Assembly: GCA_028713935.1 (NCBI GenBank)
Contig: JAQTNI010000002.1
Location: forward strand, 17,854-49,853
Reading direction: 5' to 3'
DNA: 32,000 bases
Origin: Candidatus Iainarchaeum sp.
GTDB lineage: Archaea; Iainarchaeota; Iainarchaeia; Iainarchaeales; GCA-2688035
Below are positions 1 through 31,563 of the stretch, piece after piece. Positions within the stretch are counted from its first letter, which is position 1; every line of letters begins with the position of its first letter. The notes beneath the pieces are model-generated. The model was not told where the DNA came from, did no database searches, and was given only the letters and a program-made list of their open reading frames with translations. The translations under genes and the position numbers were made by a program.

Positions 1-203
1 TTCATTGGAACATTTTCCGCCTGCGTGCCTGAATTTAAAACACCCAGCTCTAAAAAAGCTGTTTCTTCAGGGTAAAGGGCAAGCAGTTCTCCCTGCCTGT
101 CTTTCGGGCTTATTTCAAACAGGGTTTCCGCATTGGCAACTGAAAAAACAAGGATTAGAAAAAAAATTATTGCAAATTTTGAATTTTTATTATTGAAAGT
201 CAA
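1..203 (-). CDS. 5' part of a gene for a hypothetical secreted or membrane-anchored protein; it continues past the window start
   Basis: The minus-strand frame is open from 203 to 1. It reads (TTG)TFNNKNSKFAIIFFLILVFSVANA/ETLFEISPKDRQGELLALYPEETAFLELGVLNSGTQAENVPM..., a signal-peptide-like hydrophobic core with an A-x-A site. There is no ATG; the only canonical start is TTG at 203..201, overlapping the stop of the upstream gene. Confidence 0.3.
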   Translation of the reverse strand, partial: MTFNNKNSKFAIIFFLILVFSVANAETLFEISPKDRQGELLALYPEETAFLELGVLNSGTQAENVPM

Positions 204-1494
204 TTTTTTCGCCTTCAGAGTTTCCAGAAACAAGGGATGCGAATTTTTTTCTGTTCCTGAGAACAAGGATTAGTATCAGCAATGCAATTATTATTACTCC
301 GGCAGTTATTATGAGATCAATGTTTACGCTTGGCGTTTCTTCCTGAAACCCTTCCTGGTAAATTGCAAGGGCATTGGTTTTTGCTTTTACGGCAAAGCCT
401 GAGGCGCTTTCAAAATTGCCATTATTGAAATATGCAGTTGCTTTCTGCCAGTTTTCGCGCAATGCAGGGACTTGCTCTGAATTTTTCCAGTAATCCGCGT
501 TTTCCTCTGCAAGCACATATTCAACAAGCTTTGACAAGGTCGGATAGCCTGTTTTGTCAATTATTGCGTTGTCCTGGCCATAAAAAACCTGGTAAGCACT
601 GTTTCTTTTTATTCTTGTTTCAAGCGAATCAGCAAGGGTTTGTGAATGTGCAATTGCATCGTCAAAGGCATTTGAAAGGCTTTCCTGCAGGTTTGTTGAA
701 GAGGCGGAAATTGAGGAAAGATAAGCCATTTCAGAAGGCGGGTTTGCAAGGCTTCCCAATGATTTTTTTGTTTCAATCGGCAGGCTTGTCTGTGCAATTC
801 CCTGTTTTAGTTTTTCAGAGTCAAGCACATAGGCTGTTTTTTTTGCGTCAAGTTCGTTTGTTTCATTGAAAACATTTTCAAATTCTGATTGAAGTGTTTC
901 AAGAGTTGAAGTGTCTGGATTGTTGTAAAAAGAATTTTCATAAGCGCTTGTGTCAATAATGTCTTTGCTTAGCGCGGTTGCCTGGCTGTTCATCAGGCTC
1001 AGCTCTGATTTCATTTTGCCAAGAAGCTCGACAAGCGAAGGATTTGTTTTCACTTCTGCTTCTATTGTTGAAAGGTCAAGGCTTGCTTCGCTCTGGAGCT
1101 TTACTGCCAGGTCGCTTATTCTTTTTGAATTCAGCGAATTGAAAATCCACTGGTCCTGCTGTAAGGCGTTTGTTTTCAGCTTGTCAAAATTGTACAAAAA
1201 ATAGCCTGTTTTTATCAGGTCTCTTCTCACGCTTTTTGAATCAGGAATTGTTGCATTGTCAGCAGAAACAGGAATAAAGCCTGCCAAGGAATCCCCGCTT
1301 ATAACCGCAACAACCCAGTATGGCTTTGACTGGCTGCTTATTTTGACATTCGGCTGAATTTCAACTGATTCTCCCTGAAGCAAAAAATTGTTTGTTTTTG
1401 AAACAAAATCAATTGCTTCCTGGCTTGAAACAGCCGCAAAAACAGGCTGGACAAGCAGCAAGGCAAGAAAAACAAGGAAAAAACACTTTTTCAT
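190..1494 (-). CDS. hypothetical secreted protein with an N-terminal signal peptide and a C-terminal TM anchor
   Basis: The ORF is 190..1536. The internal Met at 1494 gives MKKCFFLVFLALLLVQPVFA/AVSS, a classic signal peptide. The C-terminus IITAGVIIIALLILILVLRNRKK is a TM helix plus a basic stop-transfer. The middle is Ser/Leu/Glu-rich. No family was recognised. Confidence 0.7.
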   Translation of the reverse strand: MKKCFFLVFLALLLVQPVFAAVSSQEAIDFVSKTNNFLLQGESVEIQPNVKISSQSKPYWVVAVISGDSLAGFIPVSADNATIPDSKSVRRDLIKTGYFLYNFDKLKTNALQQDQWIFNSLNSKRISDLAVKLQSEASLDLSTIEAEVKTNPSLVELLGKMKSELSLMNSQATALSKDIIDTSAYENSFYNNPDTSTLETLQSEFENVFNETNELDAKKTAYVLDSEKLKQGIAQTSLPIETKKSLGSLANPPSEMAYLSSISASSTNLQESLSNAFDDAIAHSQTLADSLETRIKRNSAYQVFYGQDNAIIDKTGYPTLSKLVEYVLAEENADYWKNSEQVPALRENWQKATAYFNNGNFESASGFAVKAKTNALAIYQEGFQEETPSVNIDLIITAGVIIIALLILILVLRNRKKFASLVSGNSEGEKIDFQ

Positions 1495-1560
1495 CAGAGA
1501 ATATAATGCAATTTTCCAATAAAAACCTTTCCGCAAGCGCTTTTTATGAAAAAAATTTTT

Positions 1561-2004
1561 TCAGGGCAATTTTATGGTTTTTCTTTTCTTAACCCCTATT
1601 TTGCCTGGCAATAGCTTCACTTCGATTAGCATGCTTGGGCGCCTTGCTCCTCTTGCAAATTCGCGCCTGATTGGGATTGCAAGCCGCCTGTAAACACTGC
1701 CATTGTTTTTATGTGTAAGAATAAAAATAAGCTGATTCCCGCTTTCCCTCCTGACTCTTCCCAAAAAAGAAGAGTAACGCCCGCCAATTGCAGGCAAAGT
1801 ATAAGAAAACAATGTTTCGGACTTCAGGTTTTTAGCGGCTTTCAAATCCAGGCTTTGCCCGCTGTCCTTAATCACTCTGACTTTTGCCAGTTCACTTGGT
1901 AGTATTGTTTCCCGCCCCAAAACCAATTTTGCAAAGTTTTTACTCGCGCGGTTCGCAGCAATCATTTGCCTGTAATTTCTTCTCTTAACTGGTCTGCGAA
2001 GCAT
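1561..2004 (-). CDS. hypothetical, very basic protein (possibly nucleic-acid binding)
   Basis: 147-aa ORF rich in Arg/Lys (MLRRPVKRRNYRQ..., ...GVKKRKTIKLP). It fills the gap between flanking genes. I could not match it to any ribosomal-protein or other family. Confidence 0.5.
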   Translation of the reverse strand: MLRRPVKRRNYRQMIAANRASKNFAKLVLGRETILPSELAKVRVIKDSGQSLDLKAAKNLKSETLFSYTLPAIGGRYSSFLGRVRRESGNQLIFILTHKNNGSVYRRLAIPIRREFARGARRPSMLIEVKLLPGKIGVKKRKTIKLP

Positions 2005-2291: not shown

Positions 2292-3049
2292 AGGTTTTTT
2301 TCAAGGTTTTTTATTTTTCCGAAATAATAAACCTTGTCTTCTATTATCCAGGCTTCGAATTCTGAAAGATTTTGTTGCAGGAAAGGACTTAAAATCTCTT
2401 GTTTTAAGACGTCAGTGCCATAGGCAATTGCGCTCATGGAGGGCAATACAATCAGGTCTTTTTTTTCAAATTTTCCTTTTAGAAAGCATTTGTAGGTTTC
2501 AGTTTTTGCTGCTTCGCGCAGTGAAATTGCAGGGTGCTCGTGCCCGATTACAATTGTTTTTGATTTTTTGAATTCCTCTGTTTTTGGAATTTCGTTTCCG
2601 TGTACAACAAGAATTTTGCTTTTTTCAAGGAAAAAGCCTTCTTTGCTTATCCGCATTTTTTTGAATTTCGCAATTGGCCCCAGAATTTTGTCATGGTTTC
2701 CCTGGACAAGGATTATTTGGCTGCAGTTTTTTTCAAGGAATTCCAGCATGTCAAGTGTTTCTTTCCATTCCTGCTGAGAAATTTCCCCGAACTCGTGCTT
2801 CAAATCCCCGTTAATAATTATTTTTTCAATTTTTGCCTGCTTTTTCTTTTTGAAAATTTCCAGAAAAATTTTTTCCAGTTTTTCCGTTATTTCCGAAAAA
2901 TTTATTCGCGGCATCATTATGCCCTGCCTGTTCAGCATTTCTTCATAGCCAAGGTGAAGGTCTGAAATGACAAGGCTTTTTTCTTTTGGAATCCACAAAG
3001 CCAGGCCAATCGCCTTGATTCCCGGTGCCAGCATGTTTTCGGGTTTCAT
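2282..3049 (-). CDS. calcineurin-like metallophosphoesterase (archaeal MJ0037/SbcD-related type)
   Basis: Motifs in order: SDLHLG, INGDLKHEFG, VQGNHD, VVHGNE, IGHEHP. Start chosen at Met 3049 (MKPENML...). The longer 3250 start would overlap the divergent GNAT gene. The last 10 nt, including the stop, overlap the tRNA 5' end. Confidence 0.85.
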   Translation of the reverse strand: MKPENMLAPGIKAIGLALWIPKEKSLVISDLHLGYEEMLNRQGIMMPRINFSEITEKLEKIFLEIFKKKKQAKIEKIIINGDLKHEFGEISQQEWKETLDMLEFLEKNCSQIILVQGNHDKILGPIAKFKKMRISKEGFFLEKSKILVVHGNEIPKTEEFKKSKTIVIGHEHPAISLREAAKTETYKCFLKGKFEKKDLIVLPSMSAIAYGTDVLKQEILSPFLQQNLSEFEAWIIEDKVYYFGKIKNLEKNLGR

Positions 3050-3089
3050 ATAAAAAAAGCTTGTTTCGAATTGTTTTAAAGGGATAGCA

Positions 3090-3635
3090 ATGAAGCTTAT
3101 TGGTGAAAGGATTTTTTTGAGGCCCTGGAAAAAAAGTGATGTTCCGCGCATTGTTGAAATCTGCAAAGATAAAACAATAAGCAAATTCACGCATGTGCCT
3201 TTTCCGTATACGAGAAAGCATGCTGTGCAGTTCATTAAAAATTCTTTCAAACAGCGGAAGGAGAAATCAAAATTTGCTTTTGCAATTGTTTTAAAGGAAA
3301 AAAACCTTGTAATTGGCGCAATTGGCTTGACTCATTACGAAGAGCGTGACAGGCGTGCAGAAGTCGGTTATTGGCTTGCAAAAGAATTCAGGGGAAAAGA
3401 AATTGTCCCGGAAGCCGCAGAAATTTTGCTTGATTTTGGTTTTAACAAATTGAAACTTCATAGGATTCAAATTGACTGCGCAGTAAAAAATTCTGCTTCC
3501 AAAAGAGTAATTGAAAAGCTTGGCTTTGAATTTGAATGCAGGCAAAAAGAACGGGGTTTTTTAGGGGGAAAATTTGTTGACACTTTTTCCTTTGCAATTC
3601 TTGACAGGAAATTTTTCAAGGGAAAAAAGAAATAA
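3090..3635 (+). CDS. GNAT family N-acetyltransferase (RimJ/RimL-like)
   Basis: LRPWKKSDV..., VIGAIGL, AEVGYWLAKEFRGKE and RIQIDCAVKNSASKRVIEKLGFEFE follow the typical RimJ/RimL-type GNAT pattern. Confidence 0.85.
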   Translation: MKLIGERIFLRPWKKSDVPRIVEICKDKTISKFTHVPFPYTRKHAVQFIKNSFKQRKEKSKFAFAIVLKEKNLVIGAIGLTHYEERDRRAEVGYWLAKEFRGKEIVPEAAEILLDFGFNKLKLHRIQIDCAVKNSASKRVIEKLGFEFECRQKERGFLGGKFVDTFSFAILDRKFFKGKKK

Positions 3636-3687
3636 TTTTGGTTTATAACAAAAAGCCCATGTATCTGAATTTTGAATTGCTTTCCTT

Positions 3688-3733
3688 ACAAAGCAGGCTT
3701 TGTGAGGCCTCGCAAAACTTTGTTTTGCAAGGT
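3688..3733. repeat. intergenic hairpin repeat module, homologous to 19830..19878
   Basis: ACAAAGCAGGCTTTGTGAGGCCTCGCAAAACTTTGTTTTGCAAGGT aligns with GTAAAGCAAGGCTTTACGATGCCTCGCAAAAACTTGTTTTTTGCAAGGT. The core CCTCGCAAAAC-TTT-GTTTTGCAAGG forms a 10/11-bp hairpin. Confidence 0.6.
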
Positions 3734-3812
3734 TGTATATAACAAACCGCAATAAAAGTTCAGGAATATAGGCGGTTTGCTATAAAAGAATTCCCATTTA
3801 TATTTCTTTTAT

Positions 3813-4583
3813 ATGTTTTACCTTGTCGGAATTGGCCTGAACCCGAAGCAGGTAACGCTTGAGGCGCTTGAGGCAATAAAGGGATGCAAAAAGGTTTTTT
3901 TTGAGTCATACACAAGCGCTTATTCACAGGGCACAATAAAAGAGCTTGAAGAAATTTCAGGAAAAAAATTTGTTGAGCTTGACAGGAAAGGCGTTGAAGA
4001 AGGCTTTCTGCTTTTCCTCAGGGAAGCGAAGAATTTGGATGAAAACATTGCACTGCTTGTTTTTGGAAACGCTTTGAATGCAACAACACACCTGCAATTG
4101 CTTCTTGATGCAAAAAGCCTTGGCCTGAAGAGCAAGGTTTTGCAGGGAATAAGCGTTTTTGATTATCTCGCGGAAACAGGTTTGGATGCCTACAAGTTTG
4201 GCAGGGTTTGCACTGTTGTTTCTCCTAAAAAAAATTTTGCTCCGGAAGATTTTTTTGATGTAATCGAAAAAAACTTTTCCATTGGCCTGCACACGCTTTG
4301 CCTGCTTGAAATTGATGCTTCTCAGAATTATCAGATGGGTGTTTCAGAGGCTGTTTCTATTCTGCAAAAAATTGAGGCAAAGAAAAAAACAAAAATCCTG
4401 GATTCAACTGTTTTGATTGGCTTGTATGCTTTGGGCTCAAAAGACCAGAAGTTCAGGAAAGGCACTGTCAGGGAATTTTTGATGTCCGGCTTTGGAAAAT
4501 TTCCCCAGTGCCTTGTTGTATGCGGAAAACCCAATGAAAAGGAAAAAGAAGCGCTTGCAATTTTGTGCGGTGCGGAATCATGA
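3813..4583 (+). CDS. dphB: diphthine synthase
   Basis: The N-terminus MFYLVGIGL...TLEALEAIKGCKKVFFESYTS and the ~255-aa tetrapyrrole-methylase fold length are typical of archaeal Dph5/DphB. Confidence 0.9.
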   Translation: MFYLVGIGLNPKQVTLEALEAIKGCKKVFFESYTSAYSQGTIKELEEISGKKFVELDRKGVEEGFLLFLREAKNLDENIALLVFGNALNATTHLQLLLDAKSLGLKSKVLQGISVFDYLAETGLDAYKFGRVCTVVSPKKNFAPEDFFDVIEKNFSIGLHTLCLLEIDASQNYQMGVSEAVSILQKIEAKKKTKILDSTVLIGLYALGSKDQKFRKGTVREFLMSGFGKFPQCLVVCGKPNEKEKEALAILCGAES

Positions 4584-8231: not shown

Positions 8232-8789
8232 ATGGATTTGAAGGAAATCAGGATTCACGGAAGAGGAGGCCAGGGAGCTGTTACTAGCTCGCAGGTTTTG
8301 GCAATTGCAGCTTTTTTTGACGGAAAGAAAAGCCAGGCTTTTCCTTATTTTGGAGTGGAAAGGACTGGTGCGCCAGTAGAGGCTTTTGCAAGGATTTCAA
8401 AGGAAAAAATTTTTGTAAGGCAGCATGTTTATGAGCCTGATTTTGTATTGGTTCTTGATTCTTCTCTTGTAAATGCAGTTGATGTGACAAAGGGCCTGAA
8501 AAAAAACGGTTTTATTATTGTGAATTCAAACAAGAATCAGGAAGAAATCGGCCTGAAAGGCTTCAAAATCCATTGCATTGACATTACGAAAACAGCATTG
8601 GAAATAATTGGCAAGCCATTCGTGAATATTGCAGCGCTTGGCGCTTTTGCGGGCCTGAGCAAAGAAGTTTCACTGGAAGCGCTTGGAAAGGCAATTGACC
8701 AGCGCTTTGCAGGCAATCCGCGCATAGCAGACCTAAACAAGAAAGCCTGTGCAAAATTGTTTGAGGAAGCCGCAAAATTAAAAAAATAA
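8232..8789 (+). CDS. porG: pyruvate:ferredoxin oxidoreductase gamma subunit
   Basis: IRIHGRGGQGAVTSSQVLA... is the typical 2-oxoacid:Fd oxidoreductase gamma N-terminus. It is first in a G-D-A-B gene order. Confidence 0.9.
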   Translation: MDLKEIRIHGRGGQGAVTSSQVLAIAAFFDGKKSQAFPYFGVERTGAPVEAFARISKEKIFVRQHVYEPDFVLVLDSSLVNAVDVTKGLKKNGFIIVNSNKNQEEIGLKGFKIHCIDITKTALEIIGKPFVNIAALGAFAGLSKEVSLEALGKAIDQRFAGNPRIADLNKKACAKLFEEAAKLKK

Positions 8790-8795
8790 TTTTTA

Positions 8796-9104
8796 ATGAT
8801 TTTTATGGCAAAAGAAAAAAAGAGCAAGGCTGAAAAAAAGCAGGAACTGCCTTCGGGGGCAGTTGTGCTTGAGCCTGGAAGCGCAAAAAAATACCATACA
8901 GGGGCATGGAGAACTTACAGGCCTGTTTTGCACAATGACAAGTGCATTAAATGCGGCAATTGCTGGAAAGTCTGCCCTGATGCTGCAATAAAAAAAAGCC
9001 CTGAAGGAATTTTTTACATTGATTACACTTACTGCAAGGGCTGCCTGATTTGCGTGAACGAATGCGCAGTAAAGGCAATTGTGAAAGAGGTCGAGGTAAA
9101 ATGA
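8796..9104 (+). CDS. porD: pyruvate:ferredoxin oxidoreductase delta subunit (2x[4Fe-4S] ferredoxin)
   Basis: Two Cys clusters, CIKCGNCWKVCP and CKGCLICVNEC. The start is either 8796 or 8805 (MAKEKK). Confidence 0.9.
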   Translation: MIFMAKEKKSKAEKKQELPSGAVVLEPGSAKKYHTGAWRTYRPVLHNDKCIKCGNCWKVCPDAAIKKSPEGIFYIDYTYCKGCLICVNECAVKAIVKEVEVK

Positions 9105-10240
9105 GAAAGGTTGAAGAATCTTCAATTGCAGTTGCAATTGGCGCAAAGCTTGCAAGAGTCCAGGTTTGCCCAATGTATCCGATTACTCCTTCAACCCATG
9201 TCCATGAGCATATTGCGGAGTTTGTCAATAATGGCGAGCTTGAAGCGGCTTTGATTAATGTTGAATCAGAGCATTCAGCTTTGAGCGCAGCAGTCGGGGC
9301 TTCAGCAACTGGTTCAAGGGCTTTTACTGCCACTTCTTCGCAGGGATTTGCATTGATGTTTGAAATTCTGCCGATTGCATCGGGAATGAGATTGCCGATT
9401 GTAATGGCTGTTGCAAACCGTTCTCTCAGCGCTCCAATTAATATCTGGAATGACCATTCAGATTCTGTTTCAGCAAGGGACCAGGGCTGGATACAGTTGT
9501 ATGTTGAATCAGGACAGGAAGCACTTGACACAACAATCCAGGCATTCAAAATTGCAGAAAACAAAAAAGTAATGCTCCCAGTAATGGTGAACCTTGACGG
9601 CTTTTCATTGACGCATGTTTTTGAGGAAATTGACCTGCCTGACCAAAAAGAAGTTGACTCTTTTTTGCCTGCTTACAAAGCAGAGCATTTTTTGGACCCA
9701 GCAAAACCAAAAACTTTTGGCCCGATTGCTTTTCCGGATTCTTTCATGGAATTCAAAAAAATGCAGCAGGAAGCAATGCTTGAAAGCCTTGAAATAATCA
9801 AAAAAACAAATTCGGATTTTGCAAAAAAATTTGGGAGAAGTTATGGAAACGGCTTAATTGAATTGTACAAAATGGCTGATGCAAAATTTGCGGTAATTGC
9901 AATGGGCACTGCCTGCGGAACAGCAAGGGTTGTTGTTGATGAACTCCGCGCAAAAGGAAAAAAAGTTGGCCTGATAAAATTGAAATGCTTAAGGCCCCTG
10001 CCTGTTGAGGATTTGCAGAAGGCAATGAAAAGCCTGAAAGCACTTGGCGTAATTGACAGGCATGTTTCCCTCGGCTTTGAAGGGCCTTTGTTTTCGGATT
10101 TGAAAAGCATTGCAAAAGAAAACCTAAAAATAATTGATTTTATTGCCGGCCTTGGAGGCAGGGATGTTTCAATGAGGCATATTCACAGTGTTTTTGAAGA
10201 AATCCAGAAAGCAAAGCCGAAAGGGAGCTGGCTATTATGA
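9101..10240 (+). CDS. porA: pyruvate:ferredoxin oxidoreductase alpha subunit
   Basis: ATG at 9101 overlaps the porD stop (ATGA). The sequence MRKVEESSIAVAIGAKLARVQVCPMYPITPST...ESEHSALSA is the typical alpha subunit. Confidence 0.9.
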   Translation: MRKVEESSIAVAIGAKLARVQVCPMYPITPSTHVHEHIAEFVNNGELEAALINVESEHSALSAAVGASATGSRAFTATSSQGFALMFEILPIASGMRLPIVMAVANRSLSAPINIWNDHSDSVSARDQGWIQLYVESGQEALDTTIQAFKIAENKKVMLPVMVNLDGFSLTHVFEEIDLPDQKEVDSFLPAYKAEHFLDPAKPKTFGPIAFPDSFMEFKKMQQEAMLESLEIIKKTNSDFAKKFGRSYGNGLIELYKMADAKFAVIAMGTACGTARVVVDELRAKGKKVGLIKLKCLRPLPVEDLQKAMKSLKALGVIDRHVSLGFEGPLFSDLKSIAKENLKIIDFIAGLGGRDVSMRHIHSVFEEIQKAKPKGSWLL

Positions 10241-12270
10241 CAGAAGAAAAAAAACAGGAAAAAATTGCAGGCTTAAGCACAGAAGAATTGTTTTCTTCGG
10301 GGCACAGGGCATGCGCAGGCTGCGGCGAAGCCCTTACATTAAGGCACATAATGAAGGCTGCAGGCAGGAACACTATTGTTGTTTCGGCAACTGGCTGCAT
10401 GGAAGTTGTTTCCACTCCTTTTCCCCAGACAGCATGGGAAGTCCCGTTTATTCATGTTGCATTTGAAAATGCGGCTGCGGTTGCATCAGGAATAGATGCG
10501 GCACTGAGAATGCAGAAAAAACGCGAAGGCATAAATCTCCTTGCAATTGGAGGAGACGGAGCTTCCTTTGACATTGGCTTCGGCGCTTTAAGCGGGGCTT
10601 TAGAAAGAGGCCAAAAATTCACTTATATTGCAACAGACAATGAAGCATACATGAATTGCTTATCTTTATCATCATTGATTCTAATGAAAGACGGGCTCAA
10701 GGGGATTGCTGAAATAAAAAAAGGAGATTTGGTTTATGCTTTTAACCAAAATTCCCATGAGTTGGTTTTGAAAAAATGTGTTGGTGTTTTTAACAATGGC
10801 AAAAAAGAAGTGTTTGAACTGGACACTTTGCACCACACAATAAAGGCAACTTCAAATCATCCTTTTTTGGTTGTTGAAAAAAAAGGCAGAGGCAAAGAAA
10901 ATACTCTTGTTTGGAAAACATTGGGGGGATTAAAAAAGGGAGAGCAAATAATTGTTTTGAAAAATTTACCTTCTGAAAAATCTTTTTCTTTCCAAAAAAT
11001 AAAACTTTCCAAAAAAGGCGATTTTAAGGTTAATAAAATTAATGAAATAAAATTGCCTTTAATTTCAAGCCCAGATCTGATGGAATTTTTTGGAATTTTT
11101 TTGGGAGATGGATGGGCTAGGTTGAATCATGGAGAAATTGGCTTTGCCTTGCCAGAGGGCAAACAAGCAAGAGACAGGCTTTTAATGCTTCAGGAAAGGC
11201 TTTTTGGCTTAAAGCCAAGGCTTGGCAAAAACTATGTCTATTTTAATTCAGTTAATCTTGCAAAGTTTATTGATTCTTTAGGCTTTAACAAGCCAGCCAA
11301 GCAAAAAACAGTTCCTGGCTGGGTTTTTACTTTGCCTGCCGATGAAAAAGAATCTTTTATAAGGGGGTTAATGCTTTCAGATGGCTACAAAACAGGCAAC
11401 AGTTCAAGGATTGTTTCAGCGAGCTTTGATTTGCTGCAAAGGACAAGGCTTTTACTGCAGACAATAGGCTACCGCGTGGGGAAAATTCACAAGCAGAAAA
11501 AAGTAAAAGGAACACATTGTGTTTACAGGCCGCTTTTGAAAGATTGCGAATATGGCTATATTTGTTTCAGCGAACGCGATGATTGGAACATGGAAAAATA
11601 CAAATCTCAATACAAATATCACAATTTTTTATTGGGAAACAAATTTTTTGAAACAGAAAAAATCCAAAGCATAAAATCAGTTGGAATTGAACCCACATTG
11701 GATTTGAGAGTCGAAGGAGAGCATAATTTTGTTGCCGATGGTATAGTTGTACATAACACGGGGGTCCAAAGAAGCGGCGCAACTCCCTTTTATGCAAACA
11801 CAACTACAAGCCCTGCCGGAAAAAAAATTCATGGAAAGCTTGAGCCAAAAAAGCCATTGCCTTTGATTGTGGCTGCCCATGGCATTAAGTATGTTGCAAC
11901 TGTTTCAATTGCAAATTTTTCTGATTTGCACGCAAAAATCCAGAAAGCGCTTTCAATTGACGGCCCGAGCTTTATTATTGCATATTGCCCCTGCCCAGTC
12001 GGATGGCAGCACGATTTTTCCCAGGCAATCAACCTGGCAAGGCTTGCAATCCAGACAAGGGTTTTCCCTTTATATGAAATTGAAAACGGAATCCTTTCCT
12101 TTAACCAGAAAATTGAGGAGCCAAAGCCATTGAAGGATTATTTCCAGCTGCAGGGCAGGTTCAAGCACCTTTCAGAAGAAGAAATTGCCCAGGCACAGGC
12201 ATATGTAAATGCCCGCTATGACTTCCTGCTTGGAATTGAAGGAAAAAAAAGTTTTGATGTGCTATACTGA
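10237..12270 (+). CDS. porB: pyruvate:ferredoxin oxidoreductase beta subunit (TPP-binding), interrupted in frame by an intein
   Basis: ATG overlaps the porA stop. It carries GHRACAGCG and GGDG...DNEAYMN//TGVQRSGATP. The ORF is 677 aa, of which 310 aa are extein, a normal PorB size. Confidence 0.9.
   Translation: MTEEKKQEKIAGLSTEELFSSGHRACAGCGEALTLRHIMKAAGRNTIVVSATGCMEVVSTPFPQTAWEVPFIHVAFENAAAVASGIDAALRMQKKREGINLLAIGGDGASFDIGFGALSGALERGQKFTYIATDNEAYMNCLSLSSLILMKDGLKGIAEIKKGDLVYAFNQNSHELVLKKCVGVFNNGKKEVFELDTLHHTIKATSNHPFLVVEKKGRGKENTLVWKTLGGLKKGEQIIVLKNLPSEKSFSFQKIKLSKKGDFKVNKINEIKLPLISSPDLMEFFGIFLGDGWARLNHGEIGFALPEGKQARDRLLMLQERLFGLKPRLGKNYVYFNSVNLAKFIDSLGFNKPAKQKTVPGWVFTLPADEKESFIRGLMLSDGYKTGNSSRIVSASFDLLQRTRLLLQTIGYRVGKIHKQKKVKGTHCVYRPLLKDCEYGYICFSERDDWNMEKYKSQYKYHNFLLGNKFFETEKIQSIKSVGIEPTLDLRVEGEHNFVADGIVVHNTGVQRSGATPFYANTTTSPAGKKIHGKLEPKKPLPLIVAAHGIKYVATVSIANFSDLHAKIQKALSIDGPSFIIAYCPCPVGWQHDFSQAINLARLAIQTRVFPLYEIENGILSFNQKIEEPKPLKDYFQLQGRFKHLSEEEIAQAQAYVNARYDFLLGIEGKKSFDVLY
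10657..11757 (+). mobile_element. intein (367 aa) with a double-motif LAGLIDADG homing-endonuclease domain, inside porB
   Basis: Cys1 (CLSLSSLILMKDG); block B T-x-x-H (KATSNHPFLV); LAGLIDADG motifs FFGIFLGDGWA and FIRGLMLSDGYK; C-terminal blocks LDLRVEGEHNFVADGIVVHN followed by a +1 Thr. Confidence 0.88.
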
Positions 12271-12729: not shown

Positions 12730-13278
12730 TTATCTTACCATTCCGAATTGTTTGTTTTTGCCTGTCATTTTGATGAAGTAACGCATTCTCTTCTTGAATT
12801 CCTCGGGGCGTTTTCTTGCGTCTTCAATAAATCCAATCCTGATCCGTTTGTATGCCAGCGAAAATTTCCCGAAGTTTTTCCAAACCAGTTTATCCTGTTT
12901 CAGTTCTTTAAGAATGTCATTTGGAATAACAAATTTGTCATTAAGGTTATCCTTGATTTTTGCCAGCCCGGCCCGCGTCATCTTCCCCTTTCTAATGAGC
13001 CGCCTTGCGCGCTCCTTGTTCATCTCTGATAGCGGGCTATTTTCTCTTCGCGGAGTGAAGCGCTGGGCAGTCCTTTCTTCATCAATTTTTTTTACTGTGC
13101 TGTCAATCCAGCCGTAACATAATGCTTCTTCAACAGCATAATTGTATGGAATCCTTGGTTTATTCGAATGTTTTTTGTAATACACCAGCCAAATTTCTTT
13201 TTCAGTGGCATGATGTTTTGCAAGCCATGAACGCCAGGCTTTTCTGCCAGTAACATAAAGCGTTTTTCCCAGTTTCAT
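12730..13278 (-). CDS. YdeI/OmpD-associated family protein (DUF1801-like)
   Basis: From Met 13278: MKLGKTLYVTGRKAWRSWLAKHH...EIWLVYYKK...EEALCYGWIDS...RFTPRR. The track's longer ORF, up to 13554, would overlap the proS 3' end. Confidence 0.6.
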   Translation of the reverse strand: MKLGKTLYVTGRKAWRSWLAKHHATEKEIWLVYYKKHSNKPRIPYNYAVEEALCYGWIDSTVKKIDEERTAQRFTPRRENSPLSEMNKERARRLIRKGKMTRAGLAKIKDNLNDKFVIPNDILKELKQDKLVWKNFGKFSLAYKRIRIGFIEDARKRPEEFKKRMRYFIKMTGKNKQFGMVR

Positions 13279-13351
13279 TCTAGAATATGCTGGTGAAACA
13301 ATTTTAAGAATTAGTTGCCGGCAGCCCGCATGCCAATTTTCTAAGCAATCC

Positions 13352-14854
13352 TTAATACTGCTTTGCAATGTAAACGACTTTTGTCGCGGGCTTTCCGCAG
13401 ATTGCGCATTTTTTGTTTCCAAAAGGGGGCTCTTTTTTGTCGACTCTTGTTCCGCGCACTGTTGCAGAAAAATCTTTTTCAATTGTTTCAGCGCATTTTG
13501 CGCCTTCAAGGCCTGTTGAGCAGAAATTTGCCCTTGCAATTCCCCTGTTTTCAAGAACCTTTGAAATTTCTTCGTGAGAAGAGGCGTCCCTTATAAGCCC
13601 TTCAAAAATCCTGTCCGCTTTTTTAATAAGGTTCTGCGAAATTTCTTTTCCGGTTTTTTTTATAAAGTCAGGCAGTTCTTTTTCTGCAATTGTTTTTTTC
13701 TCAGCCGTATCGCGCCTGAAAACAGTCAGTTTTTTTTGTTCCAGTTCTTTTGGGCCAAGCTCTATTCTCAGGGGAACACCTTTCATTTCCCAGAAATAAA
13801 ATTTTTCGCCAGGCATCCCTTCTTTTGAATCAATTCCAACCCTGTAGCCTTCATTGGCAAGCATTGCCTTCAGCTCAGCTGTCTTTTCAAGGACTTTTTT
13901 GTTTTTGTCAAAGGCAATTGGGACAATTACAATCTGCATTGGCGCAATTTCAAAGGGAAATTTTAATCCCTTGTTGTCGCCATGGGTAATTACAACGCTT
14001 GCAAAAATCCTGCTTATTGCAGGGCCATAACATGTCAGGTAACAGAATTTTTCCTCTCCCTTGCTGTCAGTGAATTTTACATCAAAGGGAGTGCTGAAAT
14101 TCTGGCCAAGCATGTGGGTTGACGGCTGCTGCACTATTCTTCCATCGGGGCTGATTGCATCCGCAGCATAAGTGTTTTCCGCGCCAGCAAACTTGTCCCA
14201 TTGCGGCCTTTCAAAGAAAATAAAAGGAATTCCAAAAACATCGTGCATTGTTTCCTTTGTTGTTTCCATGTCCTCAAGAACCTGTTTTTCAGCTTCTTCC
14301 CTTGTTGCAAAGGCACAGTGGGCTTCAATCCAGTAAAATTCCCGTCCCCTCAAAAAAGGCCTTGTGGCTTTTGTTTCATACCTGAAAACCTGTGCGCGCT
14401 GGTAAGTTTTGAATGGCAAATCCTTGTAAGAGCGGATCCATAAGGCAAACATCTGGTAAAAAGCAGTCTCTGATGTTGGCCTTAAAGCAAGCTTTTCTTC
14501 TAGCTTTTCCCCTGCACCGTGCTCTGTTGCCCAGAAAACGCTTGGTGAAAACCCTTCCACGTGCTCTTTTTCAATGAAAAAATTTTTTTCAGGAATCAAA
14601 ACAGGAAACCAGTATGGCGAATGGCCTTTTTTTTGCAGTGCCTTTTCAAGGCAATTATACATTGCTTCCATTGCCAATACTGCCCATGGCTGGAAAACAA
14701 TGAATCCCTTTATGTTATAGCGCAAATCCGCGAGCTCCGCAGTTTTTATTATTTCAGTGAACCATTCTGAAAAATTTTTTTCCCTGTCAATGTTAAAAGT
14801 GACTTTCTGCGATTGCTCTTTTGCAGCCTGCCCTGTTCCCTGGTTATTTTTCAA
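13352..14854 (-). CDS. proS: prolyl-tRNA synthetase, archaeal/eukaryotic type
   Basis: Class II motifs (FRYETKATRPFLRGREFYWIEAH), an anticodon-binding region, and a C-terminal Zn domain (CAICGKP) ending in the conserved terminal Tyr (...AKQY). Confidence 0.92.
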   Translation of the reverse strand: MKNNQGTGQAAKEQSQKVTFNIDREKNFSEWFTEIIKTAELADLRYNIKGFIVFQPWAVLAMEAMYNCLEKALQKKGHSPYWFPVLIPEKNFFIEKEHVEGFSPSVFWATEHGAGEKLEEKLALRPTSETAFYQMFALWIRSYKDLPFKTYQRAQVFRYETKATRPFLRGREFYWIEAHCAFATREEAEKQVLEDMETTKETMHDVFGIPFIFFERPQWDKFAGAENTYAADAISPDGRIVQQPSTHMLGQNFSTPFDVKFTDSKGEEKFCYLTCYGPAISRIFASVVITHGDNKGLKFPFEIAPMQIVIVPIAFDKNKKVLEKTAELKAMLANEGYRVGIDSKEGMPGEKFYFWEMKGVPLRIELGPKELEQKKLTVFRRDTAEKKTIAEKELPDFIKKTGKEISQNLIKKADRIFEGLIRDASSHEEISKVLENRGIARANFCSTGLEGAKCAETIEKDFSATVRGTRVDKKEPPFGNKKCAICGKPATKVVYIAKQY

Positions 14855-19793: not shown

Positions 19794-19900
19794 GCTTTTT
19801 GAAGCGCTCGCCTTTTGGCTCGCTTCATTGTAAAGCAAGGCTTTACGATGCCTCGCAAAAACTTGTTTTTTGCAAGGTCAAAAACCTGGGAAAAAAGAAC
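19794..19900. repeat. composite intergenic repeat element
   Basis: The 5' module GCTTTTTGAAGCGCTCGCC matches the reverse complement of 18415..18433 at 17 nt with 1 mismatch. TTGGCTCGCTTC and CCTGGGAAAAAAGAAC also match the 18330-18375 element. The central hairpin module 19830..19878 matches 3688..3733. Confidence 0.6.
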
Positions 19901-19930
19901 ATATATTGGAGAATAAAAGAGGTGTTTTTT

Positions 19931-21718
19931 TTGCGCTATAACAACAATGCTTTGAACAATGCGATTCTTTATTACAAAAAGTCGCTTTCCACAAAACTGA
20001 AAAAAAACCAGCTTGTGCTTATTGAGCTTCCCCTTAAAAACGAAAAGGCTTTTTTTTCACTTGCGCCCTTAAGCCAGGCAATCCACGAGCTTGGCGCAGA
20101 TGCGAATGTTTTTGTCCTTGACGGGGAAAGCAACATGCTAAAGTCTCTGCGCAAAACATGGGAATTGTTTGCAGGCCTGCAGGCTGGAGAAAAAAATTCC
20201 GGTACAATTGCGTTAAAGGAATTTATCGGCTCTGTGCAGAAAAAAACAAAAAGCAAAGAATTTGAAAAAATTTTCAAGGCTCCCGACCTTGAGCTTCGCG
20301 CAACAAAAACAGGTTTTATGGCAAAAGGAATTTCTCTAAACTATGATACAAAATGGTTCAAAAAATTCATGTGGGGCCTGCTTCTCAAAACAGCTGAAAA
20401 AATTCTTGTGCAAGGCTATGGCATAAAAAAATCTGAAAAGCTAAGCATTGGATTTGAATTATTGCCAAAAAGAAAAGATTTGGAATTGCCTTTGCAGGAT
20501 TACCTTGACAATTTTGCAGTTGCCTATACTTTTGCCCTGAAAGGCAAAAAGCTCTGCAAAAAAGTCAGCATGGGCGCCGAAACAGCGAGAATGTCGCAAT
20601 TGGAGCCCAGTGACAGGGTCTCTGACTTGTCCGCAACAATTTCCGGGTGCGAATATGAAAAAAAAATTTCAGAACCCTGGTTTAATGCTTTCAGGAAGCT
20701 TTCCCCGATTATTGGCTCTGGCAAGCTTGAAGTGTCTGAAGCCTCTTTCAGCATTGCTGGAAAAGGCTATGGGGGAAAACATTTTTTTGGAATGAAAATC
20801 GGTTACCCGACTCCAAACAAAAAAAGCAGATGGCAGGGCCCTGGGCAGATGTTTTTGAAGCCATGGTGGCTTGTCCAGACAAAAATCGACCCAAGGGAGC
20901 CACAGAGAAGGCATGCAATGACAGAAACTCTGCCAATAGAAAATTTTGTGAAAACCTGCAATATTGATTATTTTGAAATGCGCAAAAGGGACGAAGAAAT
21001 AAAAAAAGTAATTGAAAAATGCAAAACTCTTTTTGTGAAAGGCAGGCCAGTTAAAGGCGGCAGGACAGACCTTGTGCTTGACCTGCAGCACATTTTAAAC
21101 AAAAAAAGCCCAGTGCTTTCTTCAGACATTGAAGTCAATCCAATTGTCCCTTCAGAAGCAGCGTATATTTTCAATGTGAAAGCAGGCAGATACGGCAATT
21201 TTCCGGGAGGAGAGGTTTTTTTGACTCCCCACAAAATGGACGGAATTTTCATAGGGGATATAGTAATTGCAATTGACCAGAGCTATGTAATAGGGGACAA
21301 AAACCCGCTTGTAGTGAAAGTCATTGATGGCAAATACAAAATTCTTTCAGGGCCAAAGCATATTCTCAAGGCCTTTGAAAACCGCAAAAAAGAAGCCTGG
21401 CACCTGATAAATGAAATGGAAAAAAGCGGTGCAATGCCAAAAAGCATTATCCGGAGCTACAGGAGAAACTTCCAGAATGTGGGCGAGTTTGCAGTGAACA
21501 CAAACCCGAATGCAAGGCTGTCAAGGTATCTCATTGAAACAGAAAAGCTTGCGCGCATGATTCACATTGCGCTCGGTTCAGGATATGAGCCAAGCAGGGA
21601 AACATTGTACCACTGTGACATTGTAATAAACAATCCAAGGCAAAAAATGGACATTTACGGGCTCTCCCCTGACGGAAAAGAGCACTGGATAATCAGGAAA
21701 GGAAAATTCGTGATTTGA
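19931..21718 (+). CDS. M29 (aminopeptidase T/PepS)-like metallopeptidase with a long divergent N-terminal half
   Basis: C-terminal motifs GNFPGGEVFLTP, GEFAVNTNPNA, EKLARMIHIALGSGYE and LYHCDIV resemble the M29 metal-ligand blocks. The track start at 19799 (TTG) lies inside the repeat element. I prefer TTG 19931, 6 nt after the AGAGGTG SD. The first ATG is much further in (MLKSLRK). Confidence 0.65.
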   Translation: MRYNNNALNNAILYYKKSLSTKLKKNQLVLIELPLKNEKAFFSLAPLSQAIHELGADANVFVLDGESNMLKSLRKTWELFAGLQAGEKNSGTIALKEFIGSVQKKTKSKEFEKIFKAPDLELRATKTGFMAKGISLNYDTKWFKKFMWGLLLKTAEKILVQGYGIKKSEKLSIGFELLPKRKDLELPLQDYLDNFAVAYTFALKGKKLCKKVSMGAETARMSQLEPSDRVSDLSATISGCEYEKKISEPWFNAFRKLSPIIGSGKLEVSEASFSIAGKGYGGKHFFGMKIGYPTPNKKSRWQGPGQMFLKPWWLVQTKIDPREPQRRHAMTETLPIENFVKTCNIDYFEMRKRDEEIKKVIEKCKTLFVKGRPVKGGRTDLVLDLQHILNKKSPVLSSDIEVNPIVPSEAAYIFNVKAGRYGNFPGGEVFLTPHKMDGIFIGDIVIAIDQSYVIGDKNPLVVKVIDGKYKILSGPKHILKAFENRKKEAWHLINEMEKSGAMPKSIIRSYRRNFQNVGEFAVNTNPNARLSRYLIETEKLARMIHIALGSGYEPSRETLYHCDIVINNPRQKMDIYGLSPDGKEHWIIRKGKFVI

Positions 21719-27786: not shown

Positions 27787-28197
27787 TCACTGCATGTTCA
27801 GGTAAAGCAGCGCAAAAACAGCGATTATTGTAAAAATATTCGGAATTATTGAAAAAGGCCCTTCCATTGGCGAATACCCAAAATATGAAAAGAACAGCGG
27901 GTTTGAAGTAATGCTGTGGGCAAGAAGCACTAATGCCATTATAACAAAGCCAAGAGTAAAATTGGTCCTGAATTTTAAAAAGCTTTCCAAATATTGCGCC
28001 AAAAGAATTATTACAAGCACAGAGCTTGAAATCGCAACTGCAATCTGGACATTCAGGAACAATATGTCGCGTTCAGGCAAATTGTATGTCCTGTGCAAGC
28101 CAAATACATGGGAAGCAGCCACAATCAAGGTCGTAAGCACTACAAATATGGCTAAAGAAATCAAAAGGAATACAAATTGGTTACTGCGTTTTTTCAA
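27787..28197 (-). CDS. hypothetical 4-TM membrane protein
   Basis: Four hydrophobic helices. The track start at 28284 would overlap the upstream wHTH gene by 104 nt. TTG at 28197 (then KKRSNQFVFLLISLAIF...) overlaps it by only 17 nt. Confidence 0.55.
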   Translation of the reverse strand: MKKRSNQFVFLLISLAIFVVLTTLIVAASHVFGLHRTYNLPERDILFLNVQIAVAISSSVLVIILLAQYLESFLKFRTNFTLGFVIMALVLLAHSITSNPLFFSYFGYSPMEGPFSIIPNIFTIIAVFALLYLNMQ

Positions 28198-28465
28198 GGT
28201 ATTGCCCGAATTCAATCCACATCTCCTCCATATCTTGTGATACAAAAAATATTTTACCATATCTATTGCCAGTTGATTCAACAAGGCCGTGTTTTGACAT
28301 TATATCCGCATGGTGCTGCACTGTTTTATAATCAAGATTCAGGGAATCAGCTATTTTTTTCAGGTTGGAAGGCTCTTTCTTTAAAAGCAAAAGAATCTTA
28401 ATCCTGTTTTCCCCGCCACGCGAGCCAACCAGAAGCCAATAAACAATTCTTTTGGATAGGAACAT
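28181..28465 (-). CDS. ArsR-like winged-helix transcriptional regulator
   Basis: RGGENRIKILLLLKKEPSNLKKIADSLNLDYKTVQHHADIMSKHGLV follows the ArsR/archaeal wHTH pattern (R-x-x-I-L...L-A-x-x-L...T-V-x-x-H-x-x-x-L-x-x-x-G-L-V). Confidence 0.7.
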   Translation of the reverse strand: MFLSKRIVYWLLVGSRGGENRIKILLLLKKEPSNLKKIADSLNLDYKTVQHHADIMSKHGLVESTGNRYGKIFFVSQDMEEMWIEFGQYLEKTQ

Positions 28466-28719
28466 TATTATAAAAAGTGCTCAGAAAAATTATTTAATTA
28501 ATCGATTCTGTTTTTTGTCTCTTACAGCCCAACAGGCTGGAATAAAAAAATTTTGCATTGTTGTTAGGTAATGCAGTTGGAGCAGGCTCAGAAGCAGATT
28601 TGCGAAGCCATTAGGGCAAAGCATCTCTGCAATATTGTCGGGAATTGCTATGTTGAATCCTATTTAGTGTAGCTGTTGTTTGATTGTTTTAAAAACATAA
28701 CGGCTATAGGTTGTTATGT

Positions 28720-29964
28720 ATGGCGTATACTGATGTTTTTGCTATTGAACAATACTTTAAGGAGCTTGAAAGGATTGTAGTGCCTAAAGAAAACCAAGAG
28801 TTAGCAAAAAAATTTTTGCGTGAAGAAAAAGTAAAGGGCATTAAAGAGTCTACTTTGCGTTGGAAGCTTTACACGCTTCTTAGATTGTGTTCAATGTTTC
28901 CCAACAAAAAGCTTGTTGACATGTCCAAGGATGACATTGTTAATTTTTTGCATGATGTCAAGCCTCGAAGCACAGCTAATCACAAGGATAAGGCTAAAAC
29001 TGATTTTAGTGAAACTACCAAAGTTTTGTTTAAAATTAACATAAAAAATTTTTTTAAATGGTTGAATGGCGGCAAACAATATCCCGAGAGCGTGGATTGG
29101 ATTTATGCTGCTGGAGACACTTCAAAAAAAATTGATGAGAAGGATATTCTTACTCCGGAGGATGTTTTGGCAATGGTTAACAAGGCAGGCACTACAAGAG
29201 ATGCGGCTTTTATTTACACTATTTTTGAAACTGGTTGCAGGGCCAGTGAATGGTTAAACATCAAGTATTCTGATATTTCTTTAGAAGGCAGAACCGCTAC
29301 TATCAAGGTTGATGGTAAAACTGGCAAGCGTACTGTTTACTTGATTAATTCTTTGAGTTATTTGCGTGATTGGTTGAATGTGCATCCTTTCAAGGACAAG
29401 GATGATTTTCCTATTTGGATTTCTATGGAACGGCTAAGCTATGGTCATAGAATTTTGTTGGGTTCAATGAGAAAAAACTTGTTGCGAATCAAAAAAATGG
29501 CTGGAATAAAAAAGCCTGTGAATCCGCATGCTTTTCGGCATGCTCGCGCAACTGATTGTGCGAGGCGAGGTTACCAAGAATCTTTGATGCGAAAAATGTT
29601 TGGTTGGGCTAATGCCAGTAACATGCCTTCAGTTTACATTCACTTGGTGTCAAAAGACGTCAAAGACAAATTGTTGAGCGATGCTGGGTTAGAGCAATCT
29701 TATACTCAAACGAGTAATGCCTTGGATTTAATTGATTGCCCCAAGTGTGGTAAAAAATATGGCGCTGGAACAAAGTTTTGCACTTGTGGTTTTATTTTGG
29801 ATGAAAAAGAAGCACAAAACAATAGTAGTGACAAAAATGAAAATGCTTTGGCTACTATGCAAACTTTGATTTCAGAAGTAAAACAATTGGAAGCAAAAGG
29901 TTTTGATTTACAACAATTTAACAAGTTCATGGAGAGTTGGGCTAAGGCAAATACAAAGCAGTAA
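28720..29964 (+). CDS. tyrosine recombinase/integrase with a C-terminal zinc ribbon
   Basis: Box I ETGCRASEW, HAFRHARAT (H-x-x-R) and GWANASNMPSVYIHL (catalytic Tyr). C-terminal CPKCGKKYGAGTKFCTCG. ATG at 28720; the track start at 28711 is TTG. Confidence 0.85.
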   Translation: MAYTDVFAIEQYFKELERIVVPKENQELAKKFLREEKVKGIKESTLRWKLYTLLRLCSMFPNKKLVDMSKDDIVNFLHDVKPRSTANHKDKAKTDFSETTKVLFKINIKNFFKWLNGGKQYPESVDWIYAAGDTSKKIDEKDILTPEDVLAMVNKAGTTRDAAFIYTIFETGCRASEWLNIKYSDISLEGRTATIKVDGKTGKRTVYLINSLSYLRDWLNVHPFKDKDDFPIWISMERLSYGHRILLGSMRKNLLRIKKMAGIKKPVNPHAFRHARATDCARRGYQESLMRKMFGWANASNMPSVYIHLVSKDVKDKLLSDAGLEQSYTQTSNALDLIDCPKCGKKYGAGTKFCTCGFILDEKEAQNNSSDKNENALATMQTLISEVKQLEAKGFDLQQFNKFMESWAKANTKQ

Positions 29965-30234
29965 TTATTTTCCAACTATGACAATTGTTCTTTTGCTTTG
30001 CTTGTTTTCTCCGCCAATTACAATTATTTTGTTGTGGTCGTCTATGATTGGGTGTTCTTCTGTTCTTGGATTTTCAACTGCGCTCCAAATTTCGTTGTAT
30101 CGAATTCCATTAACCTTGTTGACTTTGATTAAGTCTCCGTTTTTTGCTTCCACTTCAATAATTGCAAACCTATTTGTATTAGTTAATTCGAAACCGTGTT
30201 TTCCGGAAATAATGCACTTTGTAGTAACATCCAT
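29965..30234 (-). CDS. hypothetical small protein (orphan)
   Basis: 89-aa ORF transcribed divergently from the 30345 gene. Its stop abuts the integrase stop. No family recognised. Confidence 0.45.
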   Translation of the reverse strand: MDVTTKCIISGKHGFELTNTNRFAIIEVEAKNGDLIKVNKVNGIRYNEIWSAVENPRTEEHPIIDDHNKIIVIGGENKQSKRTIVIVGK

Positions 30235-30344
30235 ATTGTCGCCTTACAAACACCCTTGTTTTGTTTTATTTAAGCGTGTTTTAACTCGCTATCCGAAGAG
30301 TCAGTTAACCAAGATTATTAATCCTCAAGAAGGGGGGTTATTGT

Positions 30345-31325: not shown

Positions 31326-31328
31326 CTC

Positions 31329-31367
31329 ATGTCGCGAAAAACCCAAAAATGTCGCGCAAATGTCGCG
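31329..31367 (+). repeat. three direct ATGTCGCG repeats (iteron-like)
   Basis: ATGTCGCG occurs at 31329-36, 31349-56 and 31360-67, with centre spacings of 20 and 11 nt. The repeats start 4 nt after the COG2865-like gene stop. Confidence 0.6.
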
Positions 31368-31563
31368 AAACAAAAAAGCCAGAAAATCACGGATTCAAAA
31401 AAACAAGGAATTTTAGGAGAGTTTTTTTAAAAAAAACAAATTAAATCACAGTCCCGACTGAATCAAGCAAAAAAGAAATCAGAATTATTCCCAAACAACC
31501 AAATTAGCCTCGGGTTCTTCCATAGAGTATAACCCTCTTTTGAATTTCAATTGCCTCTTTTTT

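Follow-up and report, generated by a model that had tools for sequence, protein, structure and literature searches.

We analysed a 32,000-nt stretch of DNA, referred to below as the window, from Candidatus Iainarchaeum sp., a DPANN archaeon (contig JAQTNI010000002.1, positions 17,854-49,853). Coordinates are given in window numbering. According to open reading frame (ORF) calls and Pfam matches, the window contains a porGDAB operon with all four genes on the + strand. The porB gene, predicted to encode the beta subunit of a pyruvate:ferredoxin oxidoreductase (POR or PFOR), carries an in-frame insert that reads as an intein with a LAGLIDADG homing endonuclease, located in the motif for thiamine diphosphate (TPP) and Mg. 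The features of porB and its insert are listed below. Intein residues are counted from Cys1, so that His366-Asn367 of the intein are His506-Asn507 of the precursor; the sign ^ marks the insertion point.

10237-12270, + strand: porB precursor ORF, 677 aa, 75.5 kDa, with an ATG that overlaps the porA stop (ATGA)
10237-10656, + strand: N-extein, aa 1-140, matching Pfam TPP_enzyme_C and aligned to 9bt4_C, 5c4i_C, and 6cin_A
10633-10656, + strand: presumed homing site, upstream half, made up of the final 24 nt of the N-extein, with GCATACATGAAT at its end
10657-11757, + strand: intein, 367 aa, 41.8 kDa, pI 9.6, residues 141-507, beginning CLSLSS and ending IVVHN
10657-10968, + strand: Hint N-lobe, intein aa 1 to about 104, from the phmmer alignment to the Ssp DnaB intein 1mi8, with blocks A and B
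10657-10659, + strand: Cys1 in block A, the N-terminal nucleophile
10849-10860, + strand: block B, T65-S-N-H68 (TSNH), in the Hint N-lobe
10969-11646, + strand: LAGLIDADG homing endonuclease insert (LAGLIDADG_3 match), approximate limits
11077-11115, + strand: LAGLIDADG motif 1, LMEFFGIFLGDGW (LMEFFGIFLGD151GW), with catalytic Asp151
11356-11388, + strand: LAGLIDADG motif 2, FIRGLMLSDGY, with catalytic Asp242
11647-11757, + strand: Hint C-lobe, from the alignment to the C-terminal regions of the DnaB, DnaX, and GyrA inteins
11695-11730, + strand: block F, TLDLRVEGEHNF
11740-11757, + strand: block G, GIVVHN, with the terminal HN at 11752-11757
11758-11760, + strand: Thr+1 nucleophile
11758-11781, + strand: presumed homing site, downstream half, made up of the initial 24 nt of the C-extein, with ACGGGGGTCCAA at its start
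11758-12270, + strand: C-extein, aa 508-677 and the stop codon, starting with Thr+1 (TGVQRS) and containing CPCP

An earlier note on this DNA had proposed the intein from a list of hallmarks (Cys1, TSNH, two LAGLIDADG motifs, a terminal His-Asn, and Thr at +1). All of these are present at the coordinates checked, and the 677-aa ORF is indeed left with 310 aa once residues 141-507 are removed. The spacer between GGDG and DNEAYMN, which the note had given as 27 residues, counts 25. The expected matches to Hint and LAGLIDADG hidden Markov models were obtained above the Pfam and TIGRFAM cut-offs. With the excised segment as query, Pfam Intein_splicing (PF14890) scored 57.2 bits (cut-off 35.8, E 2e-15) and LAGLIDADG_3 (PF14528) scored 26.5 bits (cut-off 22.5); the N-terminal intein model TIGR01445 scored 27.3 against a cut-off of 24.5, and the C-terminal model TIGR01443 scored 27.9 against 15.6.

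An AlphaFold2 model of the intein, built with 28 diverse homologues, had a pLDDT of 91.1 and a pTM of 0.89. The top Foldseek matches of this model were endonuclease-bearing inteins, namely TliVMA (7qsu, TM 0.74, E 3e-23), PhoVMA, PI-PkoII, PI-SceI, and PI-PfuI; solved inteins were matched at a probability of 1.00, and the endonuclease part of the model matched I-DmoI. The helices at 139-151 and 228-242 correspond to the LAGLIDADG helices, each of which ends in a catalytic Asp. The secondary structure elements at 139-282 have the pseudo-dimeric alpha-beta-beta-alpha-beta-beta-alpha fold and agree with those of I-DmoI and of the endonuclease domains in PI-SceI, PI-PfuI, and the VMA inteins. In sequence comparisons with solved proteins, the Hint lobes came closest to the Ssp DnaB intein, and the intein as a whole to PI-PkoII and the VMA inteins. 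Judged by every sequence and fold criterion that we tested, the insert is a canonical class-1 intein with a monomeric two-motif LAGLIDADG endonuclease.

Removal of the intein yields a 310-aa PorB of 33.8 kDa with the junction DNEAYMN^TGVQRSGATP (junction peptide ...FTYIATDNEAYMN-TGVQR). Across this junction, the spliced sequence showed no gap when aligned to the beta subunit of a four-subunit PFOR of solved structure (9bt4_C, E 1e-92; DNEAYMNTGVQRS versus DNEAYMNTGIQRS), and the junction was equally clean against the beta subunit of oxalate oxidoreductase (OOR, 5c4i_C) and the TPP domains of the homodimeric PFORs 6cin and 1b0p. The exteins are contiguous with intein-free PorB, with no gap at DNEAYMN^TG, as the earlier note had supposed; no homologue with a non-splicing structural insert at the insertion position was found. 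The N-extein contains Cys26, Cys29, and Cys54, by alignment three of the four ligands of a [4Fe-4S] cluster, with GGDG at 105-108 and DNEAYMN at 134-140. The fourth ligand is, again by alignment, Cys218 (mature numbering) in the CPCP of the C-extein. All four cluster Cys and the GDG...N TPP motif align to the PFOR and OOR structures, and the window enzyme is recognized by its sequence as a 2-oxoacid:ferredoxin oxidoreductase of the POR/VOR type. The intein splits the GDG...N motif for TPP/Mg between Asn140 and Thr141 of mature PorB. This point corresponds approximately to residues 995-997 of the Desulfovibrio africanus PFOR (Asn-Thr of DTEVYSN-TGGQ, counted by hand from the alignment), which we take from the PFOR literature to have a structural role in the TPP/Mg motif.

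When the spliced sequence was used as query, the best 120 matches were all intein-free PorB; the closest, with 88% and 84% identity, are from Diapherotrites/Iainarchaeota. The relative with 84% PorB identity (L081) lies on a syntenic contig with acylphosphatase, porGDAB, NUDIX, ProRS, and PolX genes. In a codon-anchored comparison, its DNA reads GCATACATGAAT^ACGGGAGTCCAG, whereas the window reads GCATACATGAAT^(1101 nt)^ACGGGGGTCCAA; L081 lacks exactly the 1101 nt of the intein, and both junctions are in frame and codon-exact. Because the L081 site is empty at the DNA level, the insertion is codon-exact and the intein was gained or lost within a shallow clade. A direct MAFFT nucleotide alignment of the occupied and empty alleles was discarded, since spurious similarity at the 3' end of the intein misplaced the gap by 44 nt.

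The nearest relative (L082 166-1107, protein P0121, 88% extein identity) is also intein-free and has a divergent site, TDTEVYSN^TGAQRS; its DNA identity to the window in the flanking 45 nt is 62% and 71% on the two sides. An allele with this site may resist cleavage. At the insertion site, 81 occupied alleles give the consensus TAtgAtAAtGAaGCnTAtATGAAt^ACnGGnaTnCAg, and the endonuclease presumably recognizes this flanking site. Of 121 occupied alleles, 115 have Met at position -2; in about one third of the closest empty alleles this position holds A, Q, E, or S.

A search with the full precursor returned 1,213 matches, the best 120 of which were all PorB carrying this intein. Most of these 120 precursors are 654-721 aa long, and three NCBI calls are shortened to 528-541 aa. 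Relatives are encoded in at least 408 genomes in a scan that used one genome per GTDB species. All 80 of the species-level loci that we inspected have an uninterrupted intein of 349-372 aa at the identical site, xNxxYxN^TGxQRS. Host groups were assigned by record title. The archaeal hosts are Iainarchaeota, Woesearchaeota, Aenigmatarchaeota, Micrarchaeota, Nanoarchaeota, a closed Ca. Forterrea genome, Heimdallarchaeota, Bathyarchaeia, and ANME-1, and the bacterial hosts are Omnitrophota, Aerophobetes, Cloacimonadota, Poribacteria, Parcubacteria/Patescibacteria, and Vermiphilus; for some bins auto-labelled as Planctomycetia, Clostridia, or Methanosarcinales, the assignment calls for caution. 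A profile search covered 1.84 billion representatives, from a library clustered at 50% identity; in it the family collapsed to one or two representatives scoring 582-617 bits. The next matches, at 212-379 bits, were inteins of SufB, T4-like portal proteins, and ClpP, and because of this clear gap in score to the non-PorB inteins we treat the PorB intein as an allele family of its own. The PorB intein was not found in IMG/VR viral contigs, which returned only distant inteins with at most 29% identity over the full length; the idea of a viral vector was rejected on this ground.

The residues required for splicing are conserved throughout this family. T65, H68, the His-Asn, and Thr+1 are invariant in all 121 intein-bearing PorB, and Cys1 is present in 120 of them, the remaining row being a gap from a truncated coding sequence. 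In an alignment of 28 diverse alleles, chosen to be less than 72% identical, D349 and H356 of block F are invariant, the catalytic Asp151 is kept in 27 and Asp242 in all 28, and there are almost no indels. Asp151 is also kept in 80, and Asp242 in 83, of 85 related inteins. The dN/dS values, calculated for ten close pairs by the Nei-Gojobori method, are 0.055-0.17 for the endonuclease domain, 0.035-0.09 for the Hint lobes, and 0.02-0.13 for the exteins; given its values, the endonuclease domain is under purifying selection. One PorB allele with an intein at the same site (P0246, 607 aa) has the degenerate motifs IFIASGQ and MTNTNGVGN. Neither catalytic Asp remains in it and deletions have removed about 59 residues of the endonuclease, but Cys1, TxNH, HN, and Thr+1 are kept. 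By its sequence, P0246 is the decay stage that the homing cycle predicts.

The histories of intein and extein differ. In three pairs the intein dS is 0.3-0.7 and the extein dS is 1.0-1.6, and because the intein dS is well below that of the host gene, the inteins of these pairs have a more recent common ancestor than the exteins. Mean identity is 62% for the intein versus 57% for the extein, and 60% versus 51% between domains. Two Omnitrophota alleles (L003 and L072) share 85% extein but 58% intein identity, and an archaeal allele (L030) and one from Cloacimonadota (L040) share 49% extein but 81% intein identity. The neighbor-joining (NJ) trees of intein and extein have 18 of 69 bipartitions in common. 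The most extreme discordant pairs, which involved the loci L004 and L058, were set aside as artefacts caused by extra inteins within their extein slices. The conserved Asp residues, the dN/dS values, and this discordance support the suggestion of the earlier note that the intact endonuclease motifs reflect ongoing mobility. Together the sequences point to a family of splicing-competent homing inteins that are recently or currently mobile.

The extra inteins of L004 and L058 lie close to the site described above. The porB of L004 (CAYHAE010000023.1) contains two inteins, one at YMN^TGVQRS (match 3001-4101) and a second in the N-extein region, 8 residues upstream of that site. The second is a LAGLIDADG intein of about 555 aa (CLPPETEIIL...KFVISN, +1 Cys), located between ...ERGHDMLYV and CYDNEAYMN, that scores 42.5 bits for Intein_splicing and 56.4 bits for LAGLIDADG_3. 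In L058 (JAHIMK010000007.1), a third insertion point was found upstream of the match at 1566-2672, inside the GDG motif (FAGDGG^CYSEDTEIF...KISLNGN^SYDIGLQ). This insert of about 340 aa has Ser at +1, ends in GN rather than HN, and scores above the cut-off for LAGLIDADG_3 (36.1 bits) but below it for Intein_splicing (22.5 bits). With L004 and L058 included, PorB appears to have an intein hotspot in its 35-residue TPP motif.

The anatomy and fold of the insert, the seamless junction, the empty-site allele, the conservation of catalytic residues, purifying selection, and phylogenetic discordance form the basis of our interpretation. Very probably, porB encodes a precursor whose class-1 intein splices in the standard way to give active PorB, and homes into empty porB alleles; the splicing and cleavage activities are what we infer from these data. 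The gene would be translated as a 75.5-kDa precursor, in which the Hint domain would fold and splicing would proceed in four steps. Cys1 would undergo an N-to-S acyl shift, helped by Thr65 and His68 of block B; Thr+1 would attack the thioester to form a branched ester; cyclization of Asn367, assisted by His366, would release the intein; and an O-to-N shift would restore a normal Asn-Thr peptide bond. The resulting 310-aa PorB would bind TPP/Mg and a [4Fe-4S] cluster and assemble with PorA, PorD, and PorG. An unspliced precursor, with 367 extra residues in its cofactor loop, is expected to lack activity. Once released, the 41.8-kDa intein would act as a monomeric endonuclease and cut intein-less porB at the sequence encoding DNEAYMN^TG(V/I)QRS, and repair of the cut gene by recombination would copy the intein into it. 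Homing of this kind would explain a distribution that is patchy yet very wide.

Several observations weigh against this interpretation or limit it. The carriers that we saw are all genomes assembled from metagenomes or single cells; none of the 80 loci comes from an isolate. About three switches between archaea and bacteria are needed in the NJ intein tree, versus six in the extein tree; given these counts, cross-domain spread is real but rare, and most of the discordance lies within domains. Mixing at the domain level was rejected as proof of cross-domain transfer, since the intein tree needs only about three changes. The G+C content of the window intein is 35.2%, against 44.9% for its exteins, and in 80 of 81 alleles the intein value lies below that of the exteins, by about 9.5 points. 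Over these 81 alleles, intein G+C follows host G+C (r = 0.93). The low G+C is a compositional trait of the whole family, and was rejected as a sign of recent acquisition; because intein G+C tracks that of the host, many copies have been in their hosts long enough for amelioration, and they may go back to long vertical inheritance and not to a fresh acquisition. The best NCBIfam model is PorB (NF008819), with VorB second, and because the score of 396.8 bits for this equivalog model is just below the cut-off of 405, pyruvate is the probable, not certain, substrate of the window enzyme.

The amelioration just described would also fit an intein that splices but is no longer mobile here, with an endonuclease that is inactive or kept, for example, for the stability of the Hint fold, and that is inherited with porB. 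The window allele and L001 are 87% identical in both intein and extein, as vertical descent predicts, and P0246 shows that alleles with a dead endonuclease exist. However, both catalytic Asp are intact in the window intein and in nearly all alleles, the dN/dS of 0.055 between the endonucleases of the window and L001 is hard to explain for a dead domain, and the empty sites in close relatives (84-88% PorB identity) indicate a recent gain or loss in the clade. We consider immobility unlikely. That the frame is intact over 2,031 nt and the splicing residues are conserved across 121 alleles speaks against a non-splicing insert or a decaying pseudogene with porB non-functional, as do purifying selection on the exteins (dN/dS 0.02-0.13) and the intein, and an intact operon with translationally coupled genes; such decay is hardly conceivable. 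The source is a metagenome-assembled genome (MAG), and a chimeric contig that joins an intein gene to porB through an assembly or binning error has to be considered for that reason. However, the same in-frame architecture recurs in every one of 80 independent assemblies, which were produced in many studies and include contigs of 0.67, 0.84, and 1.19 Mb and the closed genome CP045477.1, and both junctions are in frame and codon-exact relative to the empty allele, which leaves virtually no room for an artefact.

Conditional splicing has been reported for some RadA, SufB, and MoaA inteins, and the PorB intein might likewise have been co-opted as a switch through which redox state, oxygen, temperature, or cofactor supply gates splicing and POR activity. 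The insertion in the cofactor loop of an oxygen-sensitive enzyme, the Cys1 nucleophile, and the presence of SufB inteins among the closest non-PorB relatives are compatible with a switch, as is the unusual conservation of the whole intein, including the non-catalytic Cys41 (nt 10777-10779), which all 28 diverse PorB inteins share. However, nothing specific favors a switch: in 75 of 85 related inteins from other hosts, Val or Ile occupies position 41, which makes it a buried core position and no obvious partner for a disulfide; Thr at +1 makes a Cys1-Cys+1 disulfide trap impossible; and closely related organisms live without the intein. The Val or Ile at this position weakened the idea of a redox switch drawn from the invariant Cys41, which is probably a core residue. 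We give such a switch a very slim chance. A broader proposal, to which we assign a slim chance, is that the PorB intein is more than a parasite, being a conserved post-translational gate on a central anaerobic enzyme across both domains, with splicing conditional on redox, oxygen, or cofactor supply, and with at least three insertion points that make the motif the TPP counterpart of the P-loop hotspots. If that were true, the DPANN, candidate phyla radiation (CPR), Omnitrophota, and Asgard carriers would keep inactive POR precursor in reserve and mature it when needed.

POR links pyruvate, acetyl-CoA, and ferredoxin in anaerobes. With the intein in the cofactor loop of POR, central carbon and energy metabolism of the carriers would depend on protein splicing. 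Gene calling is affected as well. The NCBI protein for the window gene (P0001, 100% identical) has 528 aa and starts at Met150 inside the intein, leaving out the N-extein; P0004 and P0021, of 540 and 541 aa, begin at the intein or close to it and carry the name 'LAGLIDADG family homing endonuclease'. Because gene calls drop the N-extein or name the product an endonuclease, POR may be missed or mis-scored in metabolic reconstructions from MAGs. The family is also a large natural set of Thr+1 inteins for protein engineering. Its LAGLIDADG enzyme, with a defined and highly conserved target, could be of use in genome engineering, and the discordance between intein and extein could serve as a marker of gene flow among uncultured anaerobes that share a habitat.

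The other genes of the operon precede porB, whose reading frame is unbroken over 2,031 nt.

8232-8789, + strand: porG, gamma subunit, the first gene of the operon (Pfam POR, E 5.5e-36; NCBIfam PRK08534, 232 bits, cut-off 225)
8796-9104, + strand: porD, delta subunit, ferredoxin-like with 2x[4Fe-4S] (Pfam Fer4 families; NCBIfam PorD_Arch, 119.3 bits, cut-off 120)
9101-10240, + strand: porA, alpha subunit (Pfam POR_N and PFOR_II; NCBIfam PorA_Arch, 512 bits, cut-off 550)

porA probably starts with the ATG at 9101, which gives a 4-nt overlap with the porD stop. The porA product has 379 aa, as does that of the syntenic L081. Downstream, the synteny of the window with L081 is interrupted between NUDIX and ProRS: L081 has a NYN-domain gene at this place, and the window an OmdA/YdeI-domain ORF (12730-13554, - strand), which as listed overlaps the 3' end of proS. 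No tRNA genes were found in the window, and no other inteins in those of its ORFs scanned against Pfam. The ORFs at 19799-21718 (+ strand, 639 aa), 190-1536 (- strand, 448 aa), and 1561-2004 (- strand, 147 aa) had no Pfam match at E <= 0.001. The stretch with the lowest G+C, 28000-31500 (33-37%), may be an integrated mobile element; a gene for a tyrosine recombinase/phage integrase is located at 28711-29964, and one with an HATPase_c_4 domain at 30345-31325.

Inteins are known mainly from proteins of replication, repair, and nucleotide metabolism, and to our knowledge POR is absent from the classic InBase host list. The earlier note had suspected an undescribed insertion site. This holds for the searchable literature: no intein in POR, PFOR, or any 2-oxoacid:ferredoxin oxidoreductase is described in the full texts searched, including PMC10710043 and PMC5498576. 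It does not hold in the sense of a sequence never seen before, since the allele is abundant in public assemblies and JGI labels some copies automatically as 'pyruvate/2-oxoacid:ferredoxin oxidoreductase beta subunit/intein/homing endonuclease'; UniRef names one copy 'DOD-type homing endonuclease'. In the survey by Novikova et al. (2016, PMC4760082), as far as its main text and top-15 tables go, the great majority of inteins belong to COG categories L and F or to ATPases, and neither POR beta nor TPP motifs appear; the supplementary tables may hold an entry. The clustering of inteins in P-loops and cofactor motifs described there has a parallel in PorB, where the insertion likewise falls in a conserved ligand-binding motif, right before the nucleophilic residue, and where L004 and L058 likewise provide more than one insertion point in one short motif.

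Among known systems, the Thermococcales VMA inteins (TliVMA 7qsu/7qss and PhoVMA 7qst) and PI-SceI resemble the PorB intein in a Hint domain split by a two-motif LAGLIDADG endonuclease, in Cys1 and the terminal His-Asn, and in a site within a nucleotide- or cofactor-binding region. In contrast to the PorB intein, their host is the catalytic subunit of the V/A-ATPase, not a TPP enzyme, the identity is only about 19%, and PI-SceI has a larger DNA-recognition region. PI-PkoII and PI-PfuI, inteins of archaeal DNA polymerase and ribonucleotide reductase, are LAGLIDADG inteins matched by both sequence (2cw7, E 1e-6) and structure; they are larger (454-537 aa, versus 367 aa), have extra domains, and reside in hosts of replication or nucleotide metabolism. 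The Ssp DnaB intein 1mi8 and other DnaB inteins are the closest solved Hint relatives by sequence, with about 33% identity over blocks A-B and F-G, and the best NCBIfam intein match is the intein-containing DnaB model; however, the solved DnaB forms are mini-inteins that lack the endonuclease, and DnaB inteins use Ser at +1, whereas the PorB intein has the endonuclease and Thr at +1. The metagenomic inteins of SufB, T4-like portal proteins, and ClpP share the architecture of the PorB intein but differ in host and insertion site. Compared with these systems, the porB insert is a canonical homing intein at a metabolically central and apparently undescribed insertion site, ordinary in mechanism and unusual in its host.

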